From: Nitrososphaerota archaeon | GTDB lineage: Archaea; Thermoproteota; Nitrososphaeria_A; Caldarchaeales; Calditenuaceae | Length of the DNA: 64,000 nt | Reading direction: 5' to 3' | Assembly (NCBI GenBank): GCA_041641295.1 | Contig: JBEPYO010000001.1 | Coordinates: 1,486,300 to 1,550,299 of the forward strand | Shown: in pieces, positions 21,328 through 36,377 of the stretch | How positions within the stretch are numbered: the stretch's first letter is position 1 | How the letters are laid out: the number at the start of each line of letters is the position of its first letter | Position numbers and translations under genes: made by a program | Notes under the pieces: generated by a model | Database searches by the model: none | What the model was told of the DNA's origin: nothing | What the model saw: only the letters and a program-made list of their open reading frames with translations

Positions 21328-23019
21328 ATGGCGACAATAATACAGGAGAAAACAAAAGAGGAGTCAAAGCCGGTAGAAAAGCTGGTCACCCGGACAAGAA
21401 GCATCTGCCCAGAGTGCTACCAGGTCCTCCCCGCAGACGTCCTAGAGATCAACGGCAAGATATACATCAAGAAGACCTGCCCCAAGCACGGGGAATTCGA
21501 CGAGCTATACTTCGGCGACGCCGAGATGTATTACAAGTTCGCGAGGTGGCTAAAGGACGGAAAAGGTACTGGAAACCCGGACGTAGAGGCGGCCCGCAGC
21601 GTCTGCCCCTACAACTGCGGCCTATGCAGCTCACACCTAAGCCACACAGGCCTAGCCAACCTAGTCATAACCAATAGATGCGACCTACACTGCTGGTACT
21701 GCTTCTTCTACGCCGAAAAGGCAGGCTACATCTACGAGCCCACACTCGACCAGATTAGAGAGATGGCCCTAAACCTCAGGGCCGAGAGACCAGTCCCCGG
21801 CAACAGCATCCAGATAACAGGCGGCGAGCCAACACTCAGAGACGACCTCCCCGAAATCATAAGAATCCTCAAAGAAGTAGGCGTAGACCACATCCAGCTC
21901 AACACAAACGGAATAAGACTCTCGCGCGACTTCGAGTACTTCAAGAAGATAAAAGAAGCCGGGGTCAGCAACCTCTACATGAGCTTCGACGGCGTCACGC
22001 CTAGGACAAACCCGAAGAACCACTGGGAAGTCCCAGGCGTCCTAGAAAACGCCAGAAAACTCGGCGTCGGAATAGTCCTAGTCCCAACAGTCATCAAGAG
22101 CGTAAACGACCACGAACTCGGCGACATCATCAGATTCGGATTCAAAAACATCGACGTCGTAAGAGCAGTCAACTTCCAGCCAGTCTCACTCACAGGCAGA
22201 ATGCCCAAGAAAGAGAGAGAAAAATACCGCATCACAATACCAGACTGCATCATCAGGATCGAGGAACAGACAAATGGTGAAATCCCGCGAGACGCATGGT
22301 TCCCAGTACCAGCCTGCACACCCCTAACAAACTTCATAGAAGCCCTAACACGCACACCAAAATACGAGCTAAGCATACACTTCGCATGCGGAGCCGGAAC
22401 CTACGTATTCAAAGACGGAGACAAAATGAAACCAATAACAGAATTCGTAGACGTAGAAGGTCTCATCAAATACCTACAGGAAAAAGCAGAAGAAATAGAA
22501 ATGGGCAGAAGCAGAGTCTGGGTAGGAATGAAAGTACTAGCAAACATATCAAAATACATCAGGAAAGAAAAAGAACCCGCGGGAATGAACCTCTCCAGAA
22601 TGCTATTCAACATCATAGTACGACACGACTACTCAAGCGTCGGAGAATGGCACAAAAAATCACTCTTCCTAGGAATGATGCACTTCATGGACCCCTATAA
22701 TCATGATGAAGAGAGGTTGAGGCGTTGTGACATCCACTATCTGACGCCGGATATGAGGATTGTGCCGTTCTGCTCCTTTAACGTTGTGCCCGCGTGGTAC
22801 AGGGACAGGATCCAGGCGGTCTACGGCATCTCGATCGAGGAATGGGAGAAGCGGACTGGGAGAAAGCTGGCAGATGACTTTTACAAGCGTAAGCTCCCGG
22901 CAAAGCAGGCGGCGGTGCCCACGGCCTCGACTAAGACCGCTGGCTTCGGAGGCCTAGAATCGGTTCCGGTTATCCAGGGCTGCTCAGGGAAAGAGGATAA
23001 CTGCTGCTGCGGCCAGTAG
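21328..23019 (+). CDS. tes: Tetraether lipid synthase (GDGT-MAS, MJ0619-like radical SAM)
   Basis: N-terminal CPEC...CPKHG, CPYNCGLCSSH, radical SAM CDLHCWYC, VNFQPVS, HFACG, MHFMD..RRCDIHY..PFC. Confidence 0.9.
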   Translation: MATIIQEKTKEESKPVEKLVTRTRSICPECYQVLPADVLEINGKIYIKKTCPKHGEFDELYFGDAEMYYKFARWLKDGKGTGNPDVEAARSVCPYNCGLCSSHLSHTGLANLVITNRCDLHCWYCFFYAEKAGYIYEPTLDQIREMALNLRAERPVPGNSIQITGGEPTLRDDLPEIIRILKEVGVDHIQLNTNGIRLSRDFEYFKKIKEAGVSNLYMSFDGVTPRTNPKNHWEVPGVLENARKLGVGIVLVPTVIKSVNDHELGDIIRFGFKNIDVVRAVNFQPVSLTGRMPKKEREKYRITIPDCIIRIEEQTNGEIPRDAWFPVPACTPLTNFIEALTRTPKYELSIHFACGAGTYVFKDGDKMKPITEFVDVEGLIKYLQEKAEEIEMGRSRVWVGMKVLANISKYIRKEKEPAGMNLSRMLFNIIVRHDYSSVGEWHKKSLFLGMMHFMDPYNHDEERLRRCDIHYLTPDMRIVPFCSFNVVPAWYRDRIQAVYGISIEEWEKRTGRKLADDFYKRKLPAKQAAVPTASTKTAGFGGLESVPVIQGCSGKEDNCCCGQ

Positions 23020-23173
23020 ACTGTACTTTTTCAAAATTTTTAGACTAGGTTAAGCAATTATGTATTTGACCGCATTTTTATTGCTATCACTCTATTATCT
23101 TTACGAACAAGGTGGTTAAAAGCTCCCAAGCCGAGAAGATTTAAATAATTTAGGCAACTACATCTGCTAACTA

Positions 23174-23965
23174 GTGGATATGCCAGAGGATAGGGATGAT
23201 GATAGGATTCTTAGAGTTTTGAAGAAACTGGAAGAAGCTAGGAGGTTGGGCTTGATAGATGAGGAGTTTTATAGGGAGAGGAGGAGAGCTCTGCTATCGA
23301 AGTATTTAGAACTCGCTGAGGAGGAGTTAGGTGGAGATGTGCAGAGGAGCCAGGAACATGGACGGGCTGGCGGGAATAGGAAATGGCTCATCGTATCTAT
23401 AATTGCAGGTCTATTCGCCGTTGGTATTGTGTCCGCATTGTTTGTTCCTACTTTAATAAGACCCCAAACCCACACTACCACGATTTTCGTACAGGAAGTA
23501 TTCACCAAGACAGTAACTAACACACTGATTTATCCTCAGCCATATCAATATACTCAACCTTACCAGTACCTACCAGCAGAAGGTGCAATAGAGAATATAA
23601 TCTATTCCGGATCAGTACATATTGATAGGCAGTGCCGAGTACACCAATTTCCAATAAATGCCAAGAAGGGTGATGTTATAAGGGTCTACTGGGAATCAAA
23701 TGATGATGCCACATATATCGCGATCGGGACTGATGCGGACTATGAGAAAAATGTTCGCGGCTCTTACTGTGAAACTATAATTTCTCTATGGATGTGGAGT
23801 TGGCCTGCAGCAAGCTATGGCTATTCAGGATCGTTAGAATTTACAGTTCCCTCCTCGGGATCTTGGTATGTCTATGTCGCTAACGGGAACTGGGGTTGCA
23901 TATTATCCAGCTGTCCAATAACTGTTACAAAACTTGAGATCAGACATGTACAGCGAGGAGTATAA
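23174..23965 (+). CDS. Single-pass membrane protein with SHOCT-like N-terminus and extracellular beta domain
   Basis: LKKLEEARRLGLIDEEFYRERRRALL, TM helix, Thr-rich linker, QPYQY duplication, four Cys in C-terminal domain. Confidence 0.7.
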   Translation: MDMPEDRDDDRILRVLKKLEEARRLGLIDEEFYRERRRALLSKYLELAEEELGGDVQRSQEHGRAGGNRKWLIVSIIAGLFAVGIVSALFVPTLIRPQTHTTTIFVQEVFTKTVTNTLIYPQPYQYTQPYQYLPAEGAIENIIYSGSVHIDRQCRVHQFPINAKKGDVIRVYWESNDDATYIAIGTDADYEKNVRGSYCETIISLWMWSWPAASYGYSGSLEFTVPSSGSWYVYVANGNWGCILSSCPITVTKLEIRHVQRGV

Positions 23966-24381
23966 ACACAATGTATTTCATCGCCTCAAGGAAGGCTAGC
24001 TGAAATAATGAAAACGTGAGTACACGCATATAGTCTTCATAATTGTTCACAAATCTTGCATTTTCCTTTTATCGGTAATCTATCTTTAAGTCTCTTAATT
24101 ATATGTGTATCCAATTCTACAAGTAGGTGATTTTCTTTTTGGGTAGTGTTTGATGCTGAGAATCAAATTCTTTAGGTGTAGAATTAAGCTCTTTGGAATT
24201 ATCAAATTAGTTATGTATTCTTTTGCAGACTTCATTTTATCTATTCTGCCCAATTAGTAGGAAACTTGTCGATAGGAATGTCACATTCCTTGGACAAGGA
24301 GGCAGGTAAAACTATACAGAAGAGCCTCACATCTTCGACTAGCGGAGTTATACTTGTTTCTAATAAAGGGGAAGTTAATTG

Positions 24382-27300
24382 CTAAGTCGTTAATAAGTTA
24401 TTGATTGATTTTTCGATACTATCAAACCAGTATTCCTTACGAAACCTTTCAGGGAGCTTATATACATCGTCTGTGTAAAGATTTAAGTGAACTCTAATAT
24501 TAAATCCGTACTCCTGAAACGTCTTAATAGAACCATCCTCATTTCTGAAAATTTTCTCATAACCATCAATTTTATAGCCGAATTCCGTGTGGGATGTTCC
24601 TTTCGGGTCTATGAAGAGTATGTAATAGTCCTCGCCTTTGCATAACCAAAATATGAAGTCTGGCTTAAATTTGCGAAGTGAATTCTGAGAACTGTCGTAA
24701 TATGGGATATATATCTCATCTAAGTATCCATCTATTTTGCTGAACATCCACCAATCAAATTCTTTTAATAAGTTACTCTCTTTCTTTGAGTAATCAATCA
24801 AATCTTTAATGAATTTGTGTTCGCTAGGTGTATTAATTATATGGGTTATCCACTCTATCTTTTCCTCTGTCGACAGAAGGGGTAGATAATAGTGTTCGGC
24901 TATGTAGTATATTCCCAATTTTTTCCCGTCTATAGTAAGAATTTCTTGTTCTGCGTATTTTTTCTCTAATTCATATTTCCTTCTATCATACTCTGTTTGA
25001 CTTATTTTACCATAAAGATTACTCAGCTCCTGTTCTACCACTTTCTTTTCTGGATATTTCCTCACTTTTTCCAATTTTTCTTTAAGTGCATTAAGTCTCA
25101 CCTCATCCAAATACACTCCAATCCTCTTGAAATGAACTATTTCTTCCTCAAGTATTTTAAATCTTTCCAAATCCTCTACACTGACGTTAATATGAGATAT
25201 CAGACGAGTAAGGAGTACTGAGGGGGGCAACAACTCACTATTCTCGACGAAATTAAATTTCTCATCATTCCAAATAAATTCTTTAAATCTTATGAGATCA
25301 TCAAAATTTAGACCAGGTTCTGAAAAGTGAAGCATAAGTAAAACTCTGTCATCACCGATCATTTCGATGTATCTTCTAAGCTGCATTAATGATTCTCTAT
25401 TTACACTGAATTTTGGGATTTTTTCTGTTGGTACTTTCCTTCTCCCACTGTAATATGGGATCAGCAAGATTACTTCTCCTGTTTTCGGGTTTTTATCCAA
25501 CGAGATTATTTCTCCCAGTCTCATTTTTTCCTCTTTTACTGATGTCATTATTTCTTGGATAATGTTCTTTTTCGTAGCGAAAATAAAAAGAGTTTCCAGA
25601 GGGATAAAGGTTTCTGGGCTGACATTATTGACCAACTCTTTAGCCTCTGGGTCCATCGAAATGCGTAAATAGTTTATCCTCTTTCTCTTGTTTTTCATAG
25701 GCTCTATTCGCGCGCCTCTTCCTATTGATTGTGTGATGAATTTTTTAGCGTCAGTCCCGACTCCTATGTTAATAAAAGTGATTACATTAGGTCTATTCGA
25801 GTCCCACCCTTCATAGAAAGCTCTAGACCCCATCAATATGTTTATGTCGGAGTCGTCTTTGTTTATACTTCTGAAGAAGCTCTCATTTTCCCATCTTTCT
25901 ATTATCTCATATCCTGAGAGAGTCGTTTTTAGCCAATTAGTTATGTCTCCTATTTTGACACTCGCAAAAGGTCTGTCGGATGTTTTTAACTTAAATGCTA
26001 ATTCCTGCCGATTTGATGGCAGTACCAAAACTTCTATGTTTCCGGGAGTTTGTGCGTTGAAAACTTCATATAAAACATCAGTATATGAAATTGTTTTTAA
26101 TTTCTCGGTATTAACTAATAGTCTTTCTGATCCATACACGTAGGGATTCTGTTTTTCAAACTCTTGGATAAGCTCTTCTTTTGCTTTCTCAAATGTCTCA
26201 TATTTTATCTTTCCCTCAGCTATTTTTTCAAGTTCTTTGAAGAACATTTCTAAGTCGGGCTCTTTACTTGGATCTTTATGGTTGACCGTATGTGTAAGTG
26301 TTAGCATCATTGGTATGTGATAAACATTCTTACCTGTTTTTGCTCTTATATCTTTGTATATTTTTTTAAGATATGTCAAGAGGATTAATGTTTTTAAGAC
26401 GATTTTCTGTTTCTCAGTGCTCGGGTAATCTTCCTTATCTCTGAATGCTTCAAATTCTTGTTCTGATATGTATATATTCTTTCCATAACCCTTTCCTACA
26501 TATTGCGCAAGGTTAATGTTATATACAGTCGTGTATATGTCTATCTCGTCTGTAAACGTCGCTGAAAAGTTGAAAAGGAAGCCGTTTCTCGACATAATCG
26601 AGTAGAATGCTTGTCTCTTAGATTCTTCTTTGCCGCCTTTATGTGCTTCATCAAGTAAGATATACCATCTTCCAATATTCTCATAATTTCTAAAGTCTAT
26701 ATATTTCTCTGTCTCTTCGTCCCATATTAAATCTGACCTGTAGATGAAGACATCTATGGTATTCTCTCCCCTTGGCAAGATCCCACCGTACTTTACTTTA
26801 CTAAAATCTTTCAAGTTCCAAAGCCTGATCTTCAAGTTATTGTATTCATTGTATTCATCTATGTATTCCTTCATTTTCTCAACTAGATCTTCTCGACATG
26901 TCAAAACTAAGATATCGCAAGGAGGAATTTCTCTTCTTTTCATTAAATAATACAGAATCTCAATCAGTTTTACGATGACTAAGGTCTTTCCAGATCCAGT
27001 TGCCATCCAAAAGGACATTCTGTTGATGAGATTTCGATAAGATATTTGCTCTCCTTCGCTTTCAAAATATTCGGATAAGAGCTTGTAAATCGTTTTTTGT
27101 TTTGACTTTCTAATGGCTAAGTGGTGTGATTCTAGTCCTCGCCTTTCATATTCTGCGAAAAGTAATGTTTTTCTCTTTTCGTTAGTTTCTAAGGGCTCCC
27201 CCTCTTTATAGTCTTCCGCGCTTTGATAATAGAAGTAGAGAATCTTGATAGCGTTTTTTAATGCCTCCTCTTGGTAGTCGTAGAGATTCTTGGTCTTGGA

Positions 27301-27420
27301 GAATGAGGTGAAGTTGTTAAATGTTGACCATGAAGGTGGAAGAGAATTGAAATCAATACTATCAGCAATATTTTGGAGTATTACTTTGACTGGCGTGTAT
27401 CCCGACATTCTCACCACCAT
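24382..27420 (-). CDS. res: Type III restriction enzyme Res subunit
   Basis: Walker A MATGSGKT, LLDEAHK, FSAT, EGWD, QSIGRGAR, C-terminal PD-(D/E)XK (KPDF...IDPKG). Confidence 0.92.
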   Translation of the reverse strand: MVVRMSGYTPVKVILQNIADSIDFNSLPPSWSTFNNFTSFSKTKNLYDYQEEALKNAIKILYFYYQSAEDYKEGEPLETNEKRKTLLFAEYERRGLESHHLAIRKSKQKTIYKLLSEYFESEGEQISYRNLINRMSFWMATGSGKTLVIVKLIEILYYLMKRREIPPCDILVLTCREDLVEKMKEYIDEYNEYNNLKIRLWNLKDFSKVKYGGILPRGENTIDVFIYRSDLIWDEETEKYIDFRNYENIGRWYILLDEAHKGGKEESKRQAFYSIMSRNGFLFNFSATFTDEIDIYTTVYNINLAQYVGKGYGKNIYISEQEFEAFRDKEDYPSTEKQKIVLKTLILLTYLKKIYKDIRAKTGKNVYHIPMMLTLTHTVNHKDPSKEPDLEMFFKELEKIAEGKIKYETFEKAKEELIQEFEKQNPYVYGSERLLVNTEKLKTISYTDVLYEVFNAQTPGNIEVLVLPSNRQELAFKLKTSDRPFASVKIGDITNWLKTTLSGYEIIERWENESFFRSINKDDSDINILMGSRAFYEGWDSNRPNVITFINIGVGTDAKKFITQSIGRGARIEPMKNKRKRINYLRISMDPEAKELVNNVSPETFIPLETLFIFATKKNIIQEIMTSVKEEKMRLGEIISLDKNPKTGEVILLIPYYSGRRKVPTEKIPKFSVNRESLMQLRRYIEMIGDDRVLLMLHFSEPGLNFDDLIRFKEFIWNDEKFNFVENSELLPPSVLLTRLISHINVSVEDLERFKILEEEIVHFKRIGVYLDEVRLNALKEKLEKVRKYPEKKVVEQELSNLYGKISQTEYDRRKYELEKKYAEQEILTIDGKKLGIYYIAEHYYLPLLSTEEKIEWITHIINTPSEHKFIKDLIDYSKKESNLLKEFDWWMFSKIDGYLDEIYIPYYDSSQNSLRKFKPDFIFWLCKGEDYYILFIDPKGTSHTEFGYKIDGYEKIFRNEDGSIKTFQEYGFNIRVHLNLYTDDVYKLPERFRKEYWFDSIEKSINNLLTT

Positions 27421-29907
27421 ATTAGGGGTTTAATCAATTTCCAGTCTAAATTCCCTAGGTCTATAACTTCCCCATCCTCAAACTCTACCTCTTTTCTTGT
27501 CAACCTTTTTATCCATTTCCCTTTTAGGTTTGATATGGTTTCAGCAATATCTATGTTTGGATAAAGTTTCGAGAGGTCAACTTTAACGGTTTTATTGTTG
27601 TAATCTATCTCTAATGCGCGTAGCATTTTTTCATCTTTTAGGAAAACATAGTGGGAATAAATTTCGCTAGAGGTCCAGTCAACGAAGGGGTGAGTATCCT
27701 TATAGACTGCTCTATCTAGCGTTTGCTCATATTGCTCCAATTCATAATACTTAAAGAAACCGCTACCCTCCCAATTGATATTTCTACTTATTCCTGACTT
27801 CTCTCCTGCCAGAACCTTCTTCATACGCGGTAGGACGATTGTCCAGAAATGTTCACCCATTTCGACACCAATCCATTTTCTCCTTAACTTATGGGCAACT
27901 GCTGTCGCAGTACCAGAACCTAAAAAGAAGTCCATAACTAAATCACCTTCTTTAGATGTAGCCTCAAACACACGTTGAATAAGTTGCTCAGCATTTCTTG
28001 TTGGAAAGTCTGGGTCTTGTGAGTAACTTTGTATATTCGTCCAATTAGAATCAACCTTTTTAGGTGGATTTTTTATTTCGGGAACAAAATCATTTTCTCC
28101 ACACTTAGGACATTTGTCCCACAAACCTTCATAATGCTCATATCCGCAGATTTTGCATCTAAACCTTATGAGCTTTTTAGATATATATTTATCTATTAAA
28201 TCTTGTTTAATCCCCCAATGTCTTCCTAATGGAGGATATAACTTTATACCGAAAACCTCTCTCCAGTTCCTATCCTGATTCCTAACTCCTGGATAATGGA
28301 CAAAAGGTTGCCAATCAGTTTCTCTCTCTTCATATAATTCGTAAAACAAACACTGTTCCTTATTTTTGGCATAGAAAAATAGGCTCTCTGTAGCGTCAAG
28401 AAATTTGCGCTTTGCTTCTTTTTGAATTCCAGACGTCTTTATCACTATTTCATTTTGGAAATTTTCTTCCCCAAAAATTTCGTTCATTAAAAGTCTAACG
28501 TACATGTTACCGTTATCATCGCATCTCACAAAAATGCTTCCTGTATCTTTTAAAATGTGCCTTGCTAGCTGCAATCTATTCTCAAGCATTGTTATCCATG
28601 TAGAATCCTTATATTTCACATGGTAGTAGTAGTCAGCGTCCTGCTCCTTATTAAATGGTGGATCTATGTAAATTGTCTGAACTTTTCCTCTGAATTTTGG
28701 TAAAATTGTATTTAATGCTTGCCAGTTTTCACTTTTAATCAACCAGCCATCTAAAACCTTATCAAGCTCGTTATTCTCAGAAATTTTTTCTATTAACTTC
28801 CATTTAAATTCATGATCAAAGTATTTAGTATCTATGGGTAGTTTTTTTCCACTCCTTTCCTTGAAGGCTATTTGTTTCGATAAGGTCTGAAATACCCCTA
28901 ATCTCAACTCCCAACAACTCTCTCCATTCTCGTAGCTGCTCTTCATTAGCTAAAACTTTAGGAATAACGTAGTTTTCCAAAAAATCTTCTCCACACAGTT
29001 CCTTTATTCTATCTAGTGTTATTACATATTCGCTATTTAGGACAAATTTGGGTTTCTCCCATATTTTTCGCAGTTCATCTTCAAACTGGGAAATGAAATC
29101 TATGATTTTAAACGCTATCGTCTTAAGCGCCTTCAACTCTTTCAATCTTTTCTCACTAAACTCGCTCTCTTCGTCCATTATGTAATGTCTAAGCCAAATC
29201 TCAAACTGCTCTTTTAAGAAAGCATTTGCATCTTTATTAATGAAGTAATCCACCTCGCTCTGTCTCTCAAATATTTTAAATGCCTTTTCAAGAACCTCTT
29301 CTGTGATTCTTCGGTCCTTTAATCTCCTTAAAATCTCTTCGATTTTGGTCTCCCTCCCTCTCTCAGAATAAATTACTTGGAAATGAATTGTCCCATCATC
29401 ACTTACGTCCTTCAATTCGTAGATTATTTTTCTCTTTTCATAAGCCTTTCTATGCTCCACCTCAGAAGCATCAAAGAAGAACTTAAAAGCATCGACTTCC
29501 ACACTCATACTCTTATAAATACGGTCAGTCTTAACATAGTAAAGGTCTCGAGTCTTCCAGAATAAAGCGACATCCTTATCTGTATAAACTCTAGCCCAAA
29601 CATTCTCCTGGAGAGGTGTGAAGACAAAATGAATTGAGCCACTCTCACTAAAGTATCGCTTAAAGAAATTATAGAGTTTATCAAAAAGCTCTTCCCTGAA
29701 CTCAGGAAATTCTTCAAGGGTTTCCTCAACCACTTTTCTGAGAATTGACAAGAAAGACCTAAAATACGAAGATTTAATCCTCATCAAGTTTATGAAGCCA
29801 GATTTCCCTTCTATGTTTGCACCGATAAAAATATTCTCCAAAATATTAAAGAACATTCTCTCTTTTTCACCCATCCCTCCAGAAGCGATCTCATCAACTT
29901 TACTCAT
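27411..29907 (-). pseudogene. mod: Type III modification methyltransferase Mod, frameshifted at an A7 tract (ORFs 28825..29922 and 27411..28946)
   Basis: N-terminal ORF (start ATG 29907 after GGAGGTG) ends EWKKTTHRY*; removing one A at 28842-28848 gives EWKKLPIDTKYF, joining the ORF with IYIDPPFN and DFFLGSGT (beta order). Confidence 0.88.
28842..28848 (-). repeat. A7 homopolymer at mod frameshift
   Basis: + strand gTTTTTTTcc; minus strand TGG AAA AAA A CTA. Confidence 0.9.
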
Positions 29908-30227
29908 TACCCACACCTCCAACTCTAATTCCGTTAAAATAGATTCCTAATTGCGCCACTCTTTCAGAAATACCTCGCTTTACATAATTTGGGAGAATTA
30001 TTACCTTAATTATAAGGCTCTTTATCAGCCTGCCTTTCCTTAATAACCTTGGCATACCATGTATTTGACCCTTCCCATTTGTCATGTTTATTACTAGTAT
30101 GCGCCTTTTGGGTTATATATTTTTGCTTTGGCAGAGGGATTTAGTTGCGAGAGGATGGTTTGAATGGTTGAGTTGCATGAAATGTTGTTTGGAGCTACTG
30201 TTTTCGGTGGATTATTGACGGCTAAGA

Positions 30228-30461
30228 TTGGGCTATTTCAATATAGGCGCTCAATTACCTATAGAAAGGCTTGGTGGCTCAACTCTCTATCACGACTTCT
30301 ATGTGAAGCTCCACTTGATGAACATCAGAGAGCAAACGGGCTCTGAAGAGGTGACGAGCATGATTGAACGGATAATTCAGAAGGAAGTAAGAGGAGAAAT
30401 GCTGACTGACGAAGAATATAGGCTTCTTACGGAATTTACAGACTATCTAAATTTCTTCTAG
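30228..30461 (+). CDS. Small hypothetical protein, possibly the 3' part of a frameshifted gene starting at 30164
   Basis: Protein-like helical C-terminus; overlapping upstream ORF 30164..30346. Confidence 0.4.
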   Translation: MGYFNIGAQLPIERLGGSTLYHDFYVKLHLMNIREQTGSEEVTSMIERIIQKEVRGEMLTDEEYRLLTEFTDYLNFF

Positions 30462-30487
30462 TTGATAAAATATTTGTATACGGTGCG

Positions 30488-30841
30488 TTGAAGATGAGGG
30501 ATATCCTTTCAAGGTTGGTGGCCGGCAAGGAGGCAAGGTATGTTGGGAGTGGTAGGGTCCGGGGGAAACTATATAATTTGGGTGAGTATCCTGGGGCCGT
30601 TGAGGACGATGTGGGCTTCGTATACGGTGACGTATATGAGATCTCAAACATGGATGAAGTTCTGCCGCGGTTAGATGAGTATGAAGGTTTTAATCGGGAC
30701 AAGCGCGAAGAAAGTCTATTCATAAGGAAGGTTATAGAAGTATTCATGGATGACGGAAGCACCTTAAAGGCATCCGTCTACATATACAATGGTAGGGTTA
30801 GAGAAGAGGACCTGATACCAGATGGCGTTTGGAAAGTGTGA
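30488..30841 (+). CDS. Gamma-glutamylcyclotransferase (AIG2/GGCT-like) protein
   Basis: GKLYNLGEYPG, VYGDVY, LDEYEG, final GxW; the N-terminal FVYGTL(K)-like stretch (tttgtatacggtgcgttgaag) lies just upstream of the called start, so the true start is uncertain. Confidence 0.8.
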   Translation: MKMRDILSRLVAGKEARYVGSGRVRGKLYNLGEYPGAVEDDVGFVYGDVYEISNMDEVLPRLDEYEGFNRDKREESLFIRKVIEVFMDDGSTLKASVYIYNGRVREEDLIPDGVWKV

Positions 30842-30975
30842 AGGTTCAGTTTAATCCCCTATTCCTTATATGCAGCGTATCAATAGGTAGTGGAAGGAGA
30901 TGGGTAGATAACCGAGATACTAGTTTTTCATGCATCCGAAACGCTTTTAAGCCATAATCGCTTAGCTCATCTGAG

Positions 30976-32030
30976 ATGATAAAATCTGAGATAAAGAGCT
31001 CTTTGTTGGAATTTGCGAGGCGGCTGCTTGACTCGCCTCAGTTTAGAGAGGAAGTTGAAAAAGATAGGAGGGTCTTGAGAGAGTTTATTGAGCGTTTCCC
31101 CTTCAGGAAGAATCCCTCACTTATAGACGAGTTAACTCCTGAAAAGTTGTATAATCCGGGAAAATCGCGCGAGTGGTTCTTCTATTTCTTTGAATTCTAT
31201 TTGAGACGCGTTGGAACTATAGCCATACATGGTGATAAACCGTGGCGCGAGGCGTGTAGTAAAATAGACATATTTAAACAACTGTTAAAACTAGTTGTTG
31301 ACGACTCTAAATCTATTCATGAAAGGATTGATGATGAGCGGTGGAGCCAGCTCAAAGGCTGGGGAGGTGACAAACATTGTGTCAAAAAAAGCTATTCGTC
31401 TATTATCCAGAAAAACTGCTACCCACTTTTAAGACCGAACTGTTAGAAAACCAACTTAATGGCCTTGGGCTGAGAGATAAAGCCGAAATTGAGGCGCAGA
31501 GAAGATTTAATGAGAAACTTGAAAACCTCACGGTGGGCAAAAAATTCGAGATATATAATGAAATATTGATCGACTCTGTCCAGAGTGTATTGACGCGCGA
31601 CTATGAATGGGATACTTGTGCTATTGCGAGGCTTCTGGGCGAGTTCATTCCATCACCTAGGCCGATAATAAGTCGTAAGTCGGTTGAAAGCCCCTCACCT
31701 TTATCTAAAGTTCCCATGCTTTATGAGCCCGTCAATGAGCTCGGTGTAGTTCTCCTATTTGGCATGTATCACAGAGAGCTAGGATTTCCATACATAATTA
31801 AGGTTCAGCAGTCTTTTCCAGATATGATTGCCCTTGACGAAGAGGGTGACTATTGCCGAATAGAGTTTGAGTATAAATCATCATCCTTCATACAGCACGG
31901 ACACGACCCCGACGGTTGCGACTACATTGTCTGCTGGATAGACGACCTAGACGACCAATCACCCCTAAAAGAGAAGACAATATCCTTACGAGAGGAGATA
32001 TTTGAAGGTCAAGAAAACGAGCCAGAGTAA
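30976..32030 (+). pseudogene. Restriction-like PD-(D/E)XK nuclease split by a frameshift at an A7 tract (ORFs 30976..31446 and 31377..32030)
   Basis: One extra base at 31384-31390 joins GGDKHCVKK to LFVYYPEKLLPTFKTE; C-terminal FPD...RIEFEYKS...HGHD..CDYIVCW nuclease-like domain. Confidence 0.75.
31384..31390 (+). repeat. A7 homopolymer at nuclease frameshift
   Basis: gtcAAAAAAAgcta. Confidence 0.9.
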
Positions 32031-32093
32031 TCATTCGTGGAATTATGAAGAGTAGGATGTCTGGATTGGTGGGTTCAAATTCCACCTCTGGCG
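32021..32093 (+). ncRNA. tRNA-like element or pseudo-tRNA (no credible anticodon arm)
   Basis: 73 nt; GCCAGAG pairs 7/7 with CTCTGGC, G73; T8; TCAT/ATGA D-like stem with GG in loop; T-stem GTGGG/TCCAC with TTCAAAT at positions 54-60. Confidence 0.6.
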
Positions 32094-32235
32094 TGCAATT
32101 TAGAAATCCAAAAATATTATAGTCCTTTGACGAACTTCTACAAAAAAATATAGGTAAGACTTACACAGTTTGGCTTACTTTCATAGGTGAGGAAGAAATA
32201 GGGGCTGTGCAGCTTACTTGAACGAATTATTACCT

Positions 32236-32706
32236 TCAGCTTTTCCGGATAAATGTTCCCTCTAGTATATATTCCACGTTATCGTTGAGCGTAGCTACCA
32301 ATTTAATAAAAACTTCTTTGTCACTTATCCATTTGATATCGATATTTTCTCTGAACTTTTTTCCTTCACGCTCGCTCTCATGAATAAGTTGTATGTGATT
32401 CTCCTCTACTAACTCTGCTATGTGATCATGTGTGGTGCCAAGATTATCTACTGAGAACCAGTGAAGCTTTCCGTCGAAGGGATCGTATCCTATGATGTTC
32501 CCTCCATCAAGTCTCATAACGCCCGGAATTTCTGCATTTTCCTCCATGTAAAGACCATTACCGTCAGCTATTTTCCGGAAATTCATAAAATACTTAAAAT
32601 TATAAGATTTGTCACCCATCTGCATGTGTGCTTTAGCTTCCCATTTACCTTCAAGCGTAAGAACTTTGTTTAGGATTTCAGGCAATATATCCATTGTTTC
32701 CCCCAT
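32236..32706 (-). CDS. DUF1579-like beta-barrel protein
   Basis: LEGKWE..., IGYDP..KLHWFSVDNLG pattern; likely start ATG 32706 rather than 32829. Confidence 0.65.
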   Translation of the reverse strand: MGETMDILPEILNKVLTLEGKWEAKAHMQMGDKSYNFKYFMNFRKIADGNGLYMEENAEIPGVMRLDGGNIIGYDPFDGKLHWFSVDNLGTTHDHIAELVEENHIQLIHESEREGKKFRENIDIKWISDKEVFIKLVATLNDNVEYILEGTFIRKS

Positions 32707-32913
32707 TAGTTTACTCTGTGGAATATAAGTTTGTTCTAGGGACGCTGATGGTGAGGGGGAGCCAGCCCTCATGCTATATAAAATACTCGCATTATTTAAA
32801 TATGGACTGAAATAATGGCATCGACGCAAATTCGCAGAGTTCTAAAGGAGGGTTTTTTGATATCTGTTGTGTAGCCCATAAACGATTATTTACCGCTGCT
32901 TCACACAGAAGAT

Positions 32914-33675
32914 ATGCATCGGTATTTACAGGTTTCGCGCGAGGGTTTAGTGACTTGGGTTGTCTTCAACAGGCCTGAGAAGCTTAATGCCTTAAACGGG
33001 GAGATGTGGAAAGAGCTTCATGAGGTCGTGTCGAGTTTAAGCTTGGACGGCTCAAGGGCTGTGGCGTTCACCGGTGTTGGGAGGGCTTTCTCAGCGGGTG
33101 ATGACGTATACGAAATGGCGTCTCTGGGGGACTTGGAGAGGTCTGTAGAGTTTTTTAGCAGGATTCAAAAGACATTGGAAGCCCTGCTGGAGTTGGAGAA
33201 GCCCGTCATAGCCGGTGTCAACGGCCTGGCTTACGGTGGTGGATGCGAGCTGTTGCTTTTGGCAGACGTGGTTGTTGCCTCCGAAGACGCCGTGTTTGCG
33301 CTGCCCGAGGCTAGGCTTGGGCTAATACCTCCCATAGCTCTCGCAGTAGGCGGGTATGTTCTCGGCTTGCGAAGAATCTCGAGGCTTGTCTTTACAGGTG
33401 AAGCCATAGATGCGCGTGAAGCCCTTTCGATAGGGCTGGTCGACTACGTGGTTCCCAAAGAGGCTGTGAGGGACAAGGTCGTCGAAGTAGCTGGAAAGAT
33501 ATCCCTCAACGGGCCTGGGGCTGTAAAATTCATGCGGAGGTGGCTTGCTAGGAGTAGGTCTCAGAACATCCGAGAAGCCTTGAGAGAGCTCTCCTCTATG
33601 GCCGTGTCCGACGAGGCCGTTGAAGGTATGAGGGCGTTTGTGGAGAAAAGAAAGCCTTCATGGGCATTGCAATAA
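32914..33675 (+). CDS. Enoyl-CoA hydratase/isomerase
   Basis: NRPEKLNAL, AFSAGDD, GGGCEL, PEARLGLIP, AFVEKRKP. Confidence 0.93.
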   Translation: MHRYLQVSREGLVTWVVFNRPEKLNALNGEMWKELHEVVSSLSLDGSRAVAFTGVGRAFSAGDDVYEMASLGDLERSVEFFSRIQKTLEALLELEKPVIAGVNGLAYGGGCELLLLADVVVASEDAVFALPEARLGLIPPIALAVGGYVLGLRRISRLVFTGEAIDAREALSIGLVDYVVPKEAVRDKVVEVAGKISLNGPGAVKFMRRWLARSRSQNIREALRELSSMAVSDEAVEGMRAFVEKRKPSWALQ

Positions 33676-33870
33676 TAAGCATGCCTGTTATGATGGTTGA
33701 GTTGTCGATTATTGCGAATTTGTGGAGTAATAAGTATTAGTTTTTGTCAAGCTTCATATCGACGCTGGCCTCCCATGTGCCTTTGATACTCTGATTGCAT
33801 AACCTAATGATAACCTTGAAGATTTTAGAAACTTATTGCTATCGTCTCAGTAATAGAATAGGTAAATGTG

Positions 33871-33889
33871 TTTGAAAAATGTTTTCAAA
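33871..33889. terminator. AT-rich inverted repeat between convergent genes, possible terminator
   Basis: TTTGAAAA-atg-TTTTCAAA just downstream of the VOC gene stop. Confidence 0.35.
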
Positions 33890-33897
33890 TATAGGGG

Positions 33898-34260
33898 TTA
33901 TCTCTTCACGGGGCTGCCTATCTCTATTACATTGCCTTCAGGGTCGGTGCAGTGTGCTGTACGCCAACCGTAGGGCTGGTCTACAGGTTTGTCTGTGAAC
34001 TTTACACCTTTTGCTTTCAACTGCTCATACTCTCTGTCTATATCATCGACGCTGAAGAACAGCTCGAAGCGATGATGCGGCTTTGCACCGCCTTCCCTAG
34101 CGGGATGCAACGCTAGAGTTGTACCTCCTGTCTCAAAAGAGCACCAGTCAAGGCCGTGATCCTCCTTGACCGGTAATCCAAGCTTATCTCGATAGAACTC
34201 TCGAGACTTGGCCATATCTTCTACCATGAGTGTTATATAGTCGAGCTTCATGAACAACAA
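33898..34260 (-). CDS. VOC/glyoxalase family protein
   Basis: FYRDKLGL, FSVDDID, PYGWRTA, DPEGNVIE. Confidence 0.9.
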   Translation of the reverse strand: MLFMKLDYITLMVEDMAKSREFYRDKLGLPVKEDHGLDWCSFETGGTTLALHPAREGGAKPHHRFELFFSVDDIDREYEQLKAKGVKFTDKPVDQPYGWRTAHCTDPEGNVIEIGSPVKR

Positions 34261-34319
34261 ACACCTCCTCGCTACTGACTACCGGCTGTTTATAAGAGTT
34301 ATGTCACAACAACCAGCGA

Positions 34320-34850
34320 TTGCATGTCGCCATTATTTTATACAGCTTCACACACATTGTCGCGATGAATGAGGCCGGTCAAATGGCCCGGCAGAGCACA
34401 GCCTTCAAGATTGGCTGGGTGCTTATGTTCGTAGCCTCGTTGGCAGCGATAGGTCTGGGGATCGTCATAGCTATTCCGACTCTAGACCCTGGTGCAGAAC
34501 CCTTCATGCAAGCTTCCCTGCAAAACGTAAGGATGCAAAATCCTAAAGTGGCTGATTGGGTCTGGCACGAGAATAAGGAGTCGATAATAGGTTTCATCCT
34601 GTTGGGTGTAGCTAGCGCCTCCATGACGTGGAACGCTGTGAGGAGGGGTGAGAGGTGGGCTTGGGCCACCGTGCTTCTCATAGCCGTCGGCTACGGCATA
34701 CTCTACATGGTTATACATATATCGATAGCATACCTCACTTACATACCTGCTGCAATAACGCTCACCGTACTGATCATCATCGGAGGAGCAATGACAGCCA
34801 AGACCGTCTTCAGACGGGAGCAGGAGAAGCAACTGCCAAAACCCTCATGA
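34320..34850 (+). CDS. Four-TM membrane protein (start probably downstream of 34320)
   Basis: Hydrophobic helices with RRGERWAW loop. Confidence 0.65.
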   Translation: MHVAIILYSFTHIVAMNEAGQMARQSTAFKIGWVLMFVASLAAIGLGIVIAIPTLDPGAEPFMQASLQNVRMQNPKVADWVWHENKESIIGFILLGVASASMTWNAVRRGERWAWATVLLIAVGYGILYMVIHISIAYLTYIPAAITLTVLIIIGGAMTAKTVFRREQEKQLPKPS

Positions 34851-34952
34851 CACTAGAGGAGACGGGCTCAACGGACCGATTGGTATGCCGGTACTCATCT
34901 TCGTCGTGATGGTTCGTCAACTTTTTATACATGGTGAAGCGTTGTCTCTTGG

Positions 34953-35858
34953 TTGTCTACTTCTAGGGCCGGTGATAAGGCAGTTATTCAGTGGGTTTTT
35001 ATAACCGTGTCAGACATCGGCAAGTCCCTGCAATTTTATACTAGGGTCTTGGGGCTCTCTGTTCTTTCATGGCTGGGTGAGAGGGCTGTGCTGGGGGTCA
35101 CAGGTGGTCCGCCGCTCCTGATACTAAGGGAGAAGAGGGGCGCTCTGCCTAAGCCAGAGGACAGGCGTGGACTCTACCACTTCGCTATCCGCATGCCCTC
35201 TAGGCTGGAGCTTGCTAGAGTGTTTTTGAGGCTTGCAGAGTATTGGGAGATTGATGGCGCCTCAGACCATCTGGTGAGTGAGGCACTCTACCTCCGGGAC
35301 CCCGACGGCCATGGTATTGAGGTCTATGCCGATAGGCCCTCCACAGGTTGGGGACGGGGGCATGGCGGGTTCATACGCATGGCTACGCTACCGCTCAACA
35401 TAGACTCGCTGCTAGGCGAGTTGAGGGGTGAGGGCAGGAAGGTAGCCCTTTCAGAGGACTGGAAGGCTCCACCAGGCACCAAAGTGGGTCACATACACTT
35501 ACACGTCTCGCGGCTTGAGAGGGCTGAGAAGTTTTACCATAGACTACTGGGCTTTGACATAACGTTTAGGCTGGGCGGCACAGCCATCTTCATGTCATAC
35601 GGAGGCTATCATCACCACATAGGTGCCAACACCTGGGCAGGCGTGGACGCGCCGCCACCCTCGGAAGAGCATGTAAAGCTGGAGAGCTTTGCCATAAACC
35701 TTGGCAGCTCTGACCGGCTCCGCGAAGTGAGGGCTCGGCTGGTGGAGAATGGTGTCGCCGTTAATGATGGGTTGGTGAACAGCCTAGAGGGCTTCGTCGG
35801 CTACACTGTGAGGGACTCTGACGACAATCTGGTGGAGCTGGTAGTACCACGAATATAG
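34953..35858 (+). CDS. CatE-like two-domain VOC protein (catechol 2,3-dioxygenase-like)
   Basis: GLYHFAI, GASDHLVSEALYLRDPDGHGIEVYADRP, GHIHLHV, YHHHIGANTW. Confidence 0.88.
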   Translation: MSTSRAGDKAVIQWVFITVSDIGKSLQFYTRVLGLSVLSWLGERAVLGVTGGPPLLILREKRGALPKPEDRRGLYHFAIRMPSRLELARVFLRLAEYWEIDGASDHLVSEALYLRDPDGHGIEVYADRPSTGWGRGHGGFIRMATLPLNIDSLLGELRGEGRKVALSEDWKAPPGTKVGHIHLHVSRLERAEKFYHRLLGFDITFRLGGTAIFMSYGGYHHHIGANTWAGVDAPPPSEEHVKLESFAINLGSSDRLREVRARLVENGVAVNDGLVNSLEGFVGYTVRDSDDNLVELVVPRI

Positions 35859-35933
35859 ATTTGTTCCGGGCGAAGACTCATGGGAAAAGTGTATGCGACT
35901 AAATCAGAGGATCCACTAGACGACGATTAGGGA

Positions 35934-36377
35934 TCACGATCTCTTACGTATTCCTGGTAGTTTTAGTGGTATGAATTTGAGTCCTAGACTCTTGGCGAGG
36001 CTCTGTATTGCATAGTCGTCAGTGACGACGTATACTTCTTCGAAGTTTTTTGCTAGGTCTAGGGCTGTTGCGAGTATCGACTCGTCTGTTTCTGATATTT
36101 CGTAGCCTTTCTTTCGGGCTATTTCCTTTGCGGCTGTTAGGGCTTCGGTGGAGGGTTGTATTGTTTTGATGATGCCTGCGGCCAGCATGGCTTCCAGCCG
36201 GGCTACCTGTATCTCTCCGTAAACCACCTCCTTGATGGCTAGGTCTGTGGTGTAGAGGTTTGCTCCTCCTCTGAAGCCCAGTATGAGGGCTGCAGTGTCT
36301 AGGACGTAGGCTCTCTTAGAGTCCGAGCCTCCTCCTGATCCTCTTTTCAAGGAGTGAGACCCCTGACGTCCTGACAA
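35934..36377 (-). CDS. Nob1-like PIN-domain ribonuclease
   Basis: YVLDTAALI, SETDESILATA, VTDDYAIQ; no C-terminal zinc ribbon. Confidence 0.8.
   Translation of the reverse strand: MSGRQGSHSLKRGSGGGSDSKRAYVLDTAALILGFRGGANLYTTDLAIKEVVYGEIQVARLEAMLAAGIIKTIQPSTEALTAAKEIARKKGYEISETDESILATALDLAKNFEEVYVVTDDYAIQSLAKSLGLKFIPLKLPGIRKRS

Follow-up and report, generated by a model that had tools for sequence, protein, structure and literature searches.

Several RNAs end in a structure resembling transfer RNA (tRNA) that is processed by ribonucleases P and Z (RNase P and RNase Z); examples are MALAT1 mascRNA, the t-elements of plant mitochondria, and the viral tRNA-like structures (TLS). The stack of 7+5 base pairs (bp) formed by acceptor stem and T-arm serves as the recognition feature for RNase P and RNase Z as well as for the CCA-adding enzyme. 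Archaeal genomes also contain partial tRNA genes, which a published account (PMC9897764) describes as consisting of the T-arm and one acceptor strand and as arising from the integration of elements and later rearrangement. Here, we analyse a 73-nucleotide (nt) element of tRNA-like appearance that overlaps the end of a nuclease-like gene in a stretch of 64,000 nt of a Nitrososphaerota archaeon (the window; C1:1486300-1550299). The genome, labelled G000, has 1.56 Mb and a guanine plus cytosine (GC) content of 52.5%, and it is 93.8% complete. The window is archaeal, since many tRNA genes of the genome carry introns and the tetraether lipid synthase Tes is encoded.

The explanation that we favour, and to which we give an even chance, is that the element contains an orphan 3' fragment of a tRNA gene, placed at a joint of a mosaic region, and that an interrupted hairpin between this fragment and the last codons of the gene mimics a whole tRNA. 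Positions ~32060-32093 would be the orphan 3' end of a class II tRNA gene (Ser/Leu type), with its T-arm, 3' acceptor strand, and discriminator G. The fragment probably arrived with foreign DNA, or else is the residue of an old recombination event at a tRNA. GCCAGAG, the native codons with which the gene ends, is complementary to the 3' strand of the fragment, and the 13 nt directly past the stop codon are an inverted copy of the T-loop and the 3' strand of the T-stem. With both pairings, a hairpin of ~19 bp results, interrupted and with the stop codon enclosed, and the RNA would be mainly a rod. The look of a whole tRNA would thus arise because GCCAGAG complements the 3' strand and the inverted copy follows the stop.

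Acceptor stem and T-arm of the element

A preliminary description of this DNA, made from its letters, reported a tRNA mimic with a perfect closing stem, a T at position 8, and a T-arm in tRNA register, and these features hold. GCCAGAG at 32021-32027 is the exact reverse complement of CTCTGGC at 32086-32092, which is followed by a G at 32093, and T8 falls at 32028. The T-arm reads G49-T50-G51-G52-G53 / T54-T55-C56-A57-A58-A59-T60 / T61-C62-C63-A64-C65, and its five pairs are Watson-Crick except for G53-T61. As had been described, the open reading frame (ORF) at 31377-32030 has its last codons and its TAA in the first 10 nt of the element. The 7-bp acceptor stem and the 5-bp T-stem with its loop are thus at canonical positions, and the element further shares with canonical archaeal tRNA (RF00005) T8, a T-arm whose loop is GTTCAAAT, and, with the discriminator position counted, a length of 73 nt. 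Unlike an RF00005 tRNA, it has no D-arm and no anticodon arm, and it stays below every detection threshold used. Its stems are richer in AT than those of the host tRNAs matched by the descriptor below, and it has G53-T61 where G53-C61 is expected.

The D-like stem of 4 bp with GG in its loop (positions 19-20) that had been reported does exist, but only as T8-A25, A9-T24, A10-T23, and T11-A22. This is two positions out of register relative to the canonical 10-13/22-25, and it occupies positions 8-9. The anticodon arm, said to pair barely, shows no pairing in the sequence, and a constrained fold puts only ad hoc small stems in place of the two missing arms. The full cloverleaf is not there.

The element is not a tRNA gene. 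ARAGORN found no tRNA gene in the window, and Rfam gave no match there at the gathering score. When 31900-32250 was searched against Rfam at E<=10, no tRNA was found, and the sole match was a meaningless one to a microRNA family. The covariance score that had been proposed as a check speaks equally against a tRNA: RF00005 (gathering score 29 bits) has 47 matches in the genome at E<=10, of which 44 are above the cut-off, and the element is among none of them. A genuine or intron-bearing tRNA was rejected on this basis, having been missed by ARAGORN with and without introns, by Rfam at both thresholds, and by the genome-wide RF00005 search. A split or 3'-half tRNA was set aside, since the element has both strands of the acceptor stem and occurs in no further copy. 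A middle part derived from tRNA was ruled out by two shuffle tests: when positions 8-48 were compared with tRNA cores, 217 of 500 shuffles scored at least as well under plain scoring, as did 106 of 300 when G-to-A and C-to-T were scored leniently. Elsewhere in the genome, RF00005 matches weakly at C1:347244-347324 and 248198-248260, both on the minus strand (19.5 and 17.3 bits), where the intron mode of ARAGORN calls odd tRNAs; these places may be tRNAs with unusual introns. A tRNA-Gln was found in the genome by neither ARAGORN nor the RF00005 search.

We compared the arrangement of the two stems with random expectation using a descriptor made of a TTCRA T-loop, a 5-bp T-stem, and a 7-bp closing stem, with 28 allowed spacings. 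Of its 39 matches in the genome, all but the element itself fall into tRNA genes (38 matches, among them tRNA-Phe in a second register). Ten random genomes gave 0-3 matches each with G-T pairs allowed (mean 1.2), and in none of the ten was the closing stem of a match made of Watson-Crick pairs throughout. On the real genome, eight decoy loop motifs had 14 matches, one of them with such a stem. By our estimate, coincidence would produce about 0.08 all-Watson-Crick closures per genome over the 28 spacings. A search with the 19 distinct T-arm 17-mers of the host (at most 1 mismatch) reached only two places outside tRNA genes, the element and a clear tRNA-Val fragment, and the reversed 17-mers matched nowhere. 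On these counts, the likeness to an acceptor stem and T-arm is real, and chance is an unlikely source of it.

Origin of the two ends

The tRNA-like portion is the last 25-34 nt, which correspond to the 3' part of a tRNA (T-arm and 3' acceptor strand), and sequence comparisons support its tRNA origin. The T-arm is identical at 17 of 18 positions to six host tRNAs (three tRNA-Pro and three tRNA-Leu). The 25 nt from the T-stem through G73 are identical at 22 positions to the 3' ends of tRNA-Ser of related archaeal families, and 51 of the order's 75 other genomes contain a match within 2 mismatches. Under a pattern in which position 61 could be C or T, a tRNA 3' end with 1 mismatch occurs in two other genomes, G077 and G178, of the 401 searched in the phylum. 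The acceptor stem of this tRNA is GCCGGAG/CTCCGGC, with a G next to it, and its anticodon loop is CTGGAG. ARAGORN labels it a tRNA-Thr with an intron; from the anticodon loop, we read it as an intron-bearing tRNA-Ser(GGA). A phage tRNA-Leu matches at 28 of 30 positions, and this match extends into GGATTG, which resembles the end of a class II variable arm. In viral contigs, the 3' 22-mer (Y at position 61) matched two contigs, both times in an ordinary tRNA-Leu gene, and the middle 21-mer of the element matched none.

The first 16 nt are the end of the gene. Two genomes of the same genus, G007 and G004, have the gene at 83-85% DNA identity and in a different genomic place. Their copies end GAGCTTGAGTAATCATTC (vs GAGCCAGAGTAATCATTC in the genome with the element) and carry GCTTGAG where the element has GCCAGAG. 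The likeness stops at 32036, 6 nt past the stop codon, and the sequences are diverged from 32037. The copy in locus L034 reads TCAGAGTAA at the gene end. Judged from these copies, the 5' strand of the element is the gene's own end and not tRNA.

The predicted fold is a rod

The minimum-energy structure, computed in silico at 37 C for the RNA free of proteins and modifications, is a rod of -24.1 kcal/mol. It has the 7-bp outer stem, a 9-nt internal loop that holds the TAA, and then GTGGAATT-A-TGAA paired with TTCAAATTCCAC. The pair probability of this inner hairpin of 12 bp is 0.84-0.91, and that of the competing T-stem is 0.05-0.06. A tRNA-like fold, with acceptor stem and T-arm forced, reaches -19.8 kcal/mol, which is 4.3 kcal/mol worse than the rod. 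The GTGGG/TCCAC pairing of the T-stem is not used in the rod.

Absence of the element next to homologous genes

The element would share with mascRNA, the t-elements, and the viral TLS a tRNA-like acceptor/T-arm module at the 3' end of a longer transcript, as the preliminary description proposed when it suggested that a cut by RNase P might remove the stop codon from the nuclease mRNA. We asked how it fares next to relatives of the gene, a comparison that had been named as a check. Among 132 fetched loci encoding relatives, 124 hold the C-terminal end and the stop, and 122 of these have at least 120 nt downstream. None of the 122 has the motif of T-arm and closing stem between -40 and +200 nt of the stop, and, as the element is in single copy, there is no covariation to be scored. 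Inspection by eye of the copies in G007, G004, and L073 and of L021, L034, L074, and L091 revealed no element, and nothing tRNA-like follows the stop in G007 and G004. The stop regions of the family are on average unstructured (mean z -0.15), with 7 of the 122 at z<=-2; the value here is -2.15. ARAGORN places a tRNA at most 600 nt downstream in only three loci (L022, L023, and, as a doubtful call, L034). A tie of the gene family to tRNA genes was rejected, since the 681 kb of the 132 loci contain 12 tRNAs (in 10 loci), no denser than the genome.

The known tRNA-like 3' structures are conserved and fold like tRNA, whereas this element is in single copy, is absent at all 122 homologous loci, and is predicted to be a rod. 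With the divergence of G007 and G004 6 nt after the stop, a fold that disfavours the T-arm, and a gene that is frameshifted (see below), the idea of a maintained, processed structure that controls the mRNA gains no support from conservation, from the predicted fold, or from the state of the gene, and a regulatory role of the element is unsupported.

The element as a possible attachment site

The other reading in the preliminary description, an attachment (att) site left by integration at a tRNA, retains the tRNA origin of the 3' 25-34 nt, but the classical marks of an att remnant are missing. Comparison with the tRNA set of the host reveals no near-identical parent tRNA in the genome. No direct repeat connects the element with the other boundary or with anything else in 22800-36300. 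No integrase or recombinase was found in 17 ORFs of the window with Pfam, or in the ORFs scanned with NCBIfam, a scan that covers neither ORFs below 60 aa nor remote homologues. All six loci that span or border the empty site in relatives (in G002, G003, G004, G005, and G007) are free of tRNAs. A classical att remnant was rejected on these four tests (parent tRNA, integrase, direct repeat, and tRNA at the empty site). A repeated element or miniature inverted-repeat transposable element was ruled out, since there is a single copy in the genome.

The closest described cases are the partial tRNA genes of PMC9897764. The fragment shares with them the combination of T-arm and one acceptor strand and the setting in an accessory, low-GC, mosaic region. 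In the examples given there, downstream sequence can lead prediction programs or readers to a whole tRNA, and rearrangement has moved partial and full copies far apart. The cases presented there differ from ours, in which no full parent copy, no direct repeat of ~44 bp, and no integrase were found, tRNA-Ser of other families matches best (22/25), and the opposite acceptor strand comes from a protein-coding end.

The 3' and 5' 40-mers of all tRNAs called by ARAGORN match the genome outside these genes at one place only, a tRNA-Val fragment at C1:885839-885871 on the minus strand (locus L174:340-372). This other orphan fragment has 33 nt, of which 32 are identical to the 3' end of tRNA-Val, and it exemplifies what a host-derived fragment looks like in this genome. 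It adjoins a LAGLIDADG-like ORF. The 17 kb that separate it from the tRNA-Val(TAC) at 903285 hold core genes (Cdc6 and the small subunit of DNA polymerase), and it is therefore not a simple integrated element.

The variable region and the nuclease-like gene

The element was described as lying at an island edge. It does lie at the joint of two blocks inside a variable region (Table 1), but not at the outer edge of that region. The distance between the flanks is ~0.4 kb in G004 (from a translated match), 2.3 kb in G002, and 8.8 kb in G007. In G000, the region is a mosaic of a type III restriction-modification (R-M) block, a GGACT-family gene, the nuclease-like gene, the element, an AT-rich spacer, a DUF1579-like gene, and an enoyl-CoA hydratase block, the last being common to G005, G006, and G027. 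GC content is 35% at 24-30 kb and 43-45% at 30-34 kb. The spacer has no match among 40 relatives or the fetched loci. The DUF1579-like gene was considered as a pointer to an older tRNA at this place and discarded for want of a usable locus: the copy in G006 is cut by a contig end, and the one in G007 is only 30% identical. An inverted match of 14 nt (13/14) between 24031-24044, at the left margin of the low-GC block, and 32041-32054, in the middle of the element, is probably due to chance, being one of 19 such pairs in 13.5 kb.

Table 1. Coordinates of the element, its parts, and the surrounding features in the window
Feature	Position	Strand	Details
73-nt element	32021-32093	+	Consists of outer stem (7 bp), inner hairpin, T-arm-like hairpin, and final G
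Outer stem, 5' strand GCCAGAG	32021-32027	+	Coincides with the final codons (gaG CCA GAG) of the gene
TAA stop codon of the nuclease-like gene	32028-32030	+	Inside the 9-nt internal loop TAATCATTC (32028-32036)
Inner hairpin, left arm GTGGAATTATGAA	32037-32049	+	Reverse complement of 32074-32085 plus one extra base
Probable tRNA-gene 3' fragment	32060-32093	+	GGATTG; T-arm 32069-32085; 3' acceptor strand 32086-32092; discriminator-like G 32093
Nuclease-like gene	30976-32030	+	Split into ORFs 30976-31446 and 31377-32030
AT-rich spacer	32094-32235		Holds an A7 run, which reads T7 on the minus strand and lies downstream of the convergent gene
Convergent DUF1579-like gene	32236-32829	-	Found in 3 genomes, G000 among them, out of 76 in the class
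Type III R-M block, low GC	24382-29922	-	Res 24382-27420; Mod in two pieces, 28825-29922 and 27411-28946, with an A7 run near the split
Variable region relative to same-genus genomes	23005-35940 (about)		12.9 kb; flanks conserved in five same-genus genomes, stopping at ~23005 and restarting at ~35940

Relatives of the nuclease-like gene encode 340-350 aa. Here the gene is frameshifted, with one base missing at an A7 run (31384-31390) relative to relatives that include G007. Between 30900 and 32400, there are no differences among three assemblies (from two studies), which may be source samples; all that this identity establishes is that neither the frameshift nor the element is confined to a single assembly. 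The Mod gene and the nuclease-like gene of the low-GC block both shift frame at or near an A7 run, at 28842-28848 (-) and 31384-31390 (+), respectively. These frame changes could reflect decay, phase variation, or slippage in transcription or translation.

The protein has no match in Pfam, NCBIfam, PADLOC, or the sequences of the PDB. The AlphaFold model of a relative (P0002) has a mean predicted local distance difference test score (pLDDT) of 90.4. Its residues 241-346 align to restriction-endonuclease-like folds (NucS/EndoMS, Z 6.0; AF1548, 5.5; VRR-NUC, 5.2; FokI, 5.0; also Hjc and MspJI), and residues 1-226 align to helical folds like that of 8-oxoguanine glycosylase (Z 6.3); all these scores, being below 8, are middling. 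Foldseek found no match for the model in the PDB at E<=0.001, and its best restriction-endonuclease-like row was 2vld (probability 0.95, E 0.3). D280, E294, and F295 are invariant in alignment A1. On the model, the label "nuclease" for the product appears reasonable, though it is unproven. The family (P0002-P0042, ~340-350 aa, no Pfam match) would combine an N-terminal helical domain like those of 8-oxoguanine or AGOG glycosylases with a C-terminal restriction-endonuclease-like domain. More distant proteins join the same C-terminal domain to EVE or "homing endonuclease associated repeat" domains.

In G007 (C8:239694-241352; loci L003 and L011) and G004 (C41; locus L004), the gene stands alone, without the R-M block, ~240 nt from a pair of an intron-bearing tRNA-Leu(TAA) and a tRNA-Cys. 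No repeat of a tRNA end was found at the gene in either genome. In G000, the same tRNA pair is at C1:28390-28701, far from the gene. Similarity between genomes is higher for the gene (83-85%) than for the core DNA that flanks it (72-75%).

Weighing the explanations

Several observations weigh against the favoured explanation, an orphan tRNA-gene fragment in a hairpin. The genome, nearly complete, contains no parent tRNA with this 3' end; the best host match, 17/18, concerns the T-arm only. Since the other orphan fragment is 32/33 identical to tRNA-Val and the element lacks such a parent here, it is at best old or foreign. The scanned ORFs include no integrase, there is no direct repeat, and the empty site has no tRNA. 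A perfect Watson-Crick closure (7/7) at exact tRNA spacing is an improbable coincidence, as none of the 10 random genomes contained one. In stability, the fold exceeds that of shuffled sequences (z -2.45; 3 of 200 shuffles as stable). Finally, the three differences from a tRNA-Ser-type end (at 61, 67, and 69) are all C-to-T, and each makes a Watson-Crick pair in the rod, which hints at selection on pairing or inverted duplication over plain decay. These pair-creating changes are the sole feature that plain decay leaves unexplained, and they could be due to selection on the hairpin, inverted duplication, or luck.

The element might have no tRNA ancestry and be an AT-rich intergenic hairpin that acquired a T-arm-like motif by chance. 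The loose descriptor matches about 1.2 times per random genome, we estimate ~0.18 orphan T-arm look-alikes per genome under the 17-mer search, the comparison with tRNA-Ser was picked post hoc, and no tRNA model scores the element. We nevertheless consider this unlikely, given the rarity of all-Watson-Crick closures (0 of 10 random genomes, 1 of 14 decoy matches), the silence of the reversed 17-mers, and a match to genuine tRNA-Ser ends that takes in the 3' strand and G73; selection on a hairpin would not explain the GTGGG/TCCAC pairing, which is idle in the rod. A functional RNA at the 3' end of the nuclease-like mRNA is distinctly improbable in our judgement; as a hairpin or in a minor tRNA-like conformation, it could be a substrate of RNase P or RNase Z, with loss of the stop codon, or it could protect the 3' end. 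The perfect 7-bp closing stem with a T-arm at tRNA geometry, the stability of the fold, and the three differences that all add pairs are what such an element might show, and its 7+5 bp stack could by analogy be a target of these enzymes and of the CCA-adding enzyme. Yet it is missing from 122 of 122 homologous loci, among close relatives even from copies at 83-85% DNA identity (G007 and G004); the T-arm has a pair probability of only ~0.05, in a fold 4.3 kcal/mol less favourable than the rod; the gene is frameshifted, with identical sequence in three assemblies; and a single copy offers no covariation.

A whole decayed tRNA pseudogene, meaning that the 73 nt all go back to a single tRNA, that its middle was deleted or scrambled, and that the gene came to end inside it, would account for the perfect closing stem without coincidence and for the exact 73-nt length with T8. 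It also fits the identity at 7 of 8 positions between GCCAGAGT and the 5' end, GCCGGAGT, of the G077/G178 tRNA that we read as tRNA-Ser. We hold it to be very improbable, however: the first 16 nt are common to the gene copies of G007 and G004, where nothing tRNA-like follows them; Ser and Leu tRNAs have 85-88 nt and a long variable arm; the middle has no tRNA signal even under lenient scoring, which 106 of 300 shuffles equal; and neutral decay is unlikely to spare 31 nt yet erase 41 nt. It would be a long shot that the tRNA fragment and the last nuclease codons were moulded by the three pair-creating C-to-T changes into a new RNA element enclosing the stop codon, in which a minor conformer cut by RNase P or RNase Z, or a rod that blocks decay, tunes nuclease expression, perhaps in concert with slippage at the A7 run in the gene. 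We return, then, to an orphan tRNA-gene fragment paired with the end of the gene, and we infer that the hairpin is a scar without a dedicated function.

As it stands, the element would be one more orphan tRNA-gene fragment in a variable region of an archaeon, of little biological weight. If RNA processing at the stop codon were true, it would represent control of an archaeal mRNA by a tRNA-like module born of a recombination scar. The element also gives reason for caution, in that an acceptor stem and T-arm can imitate a tRNA where the neighbouring sequence happens to pair.

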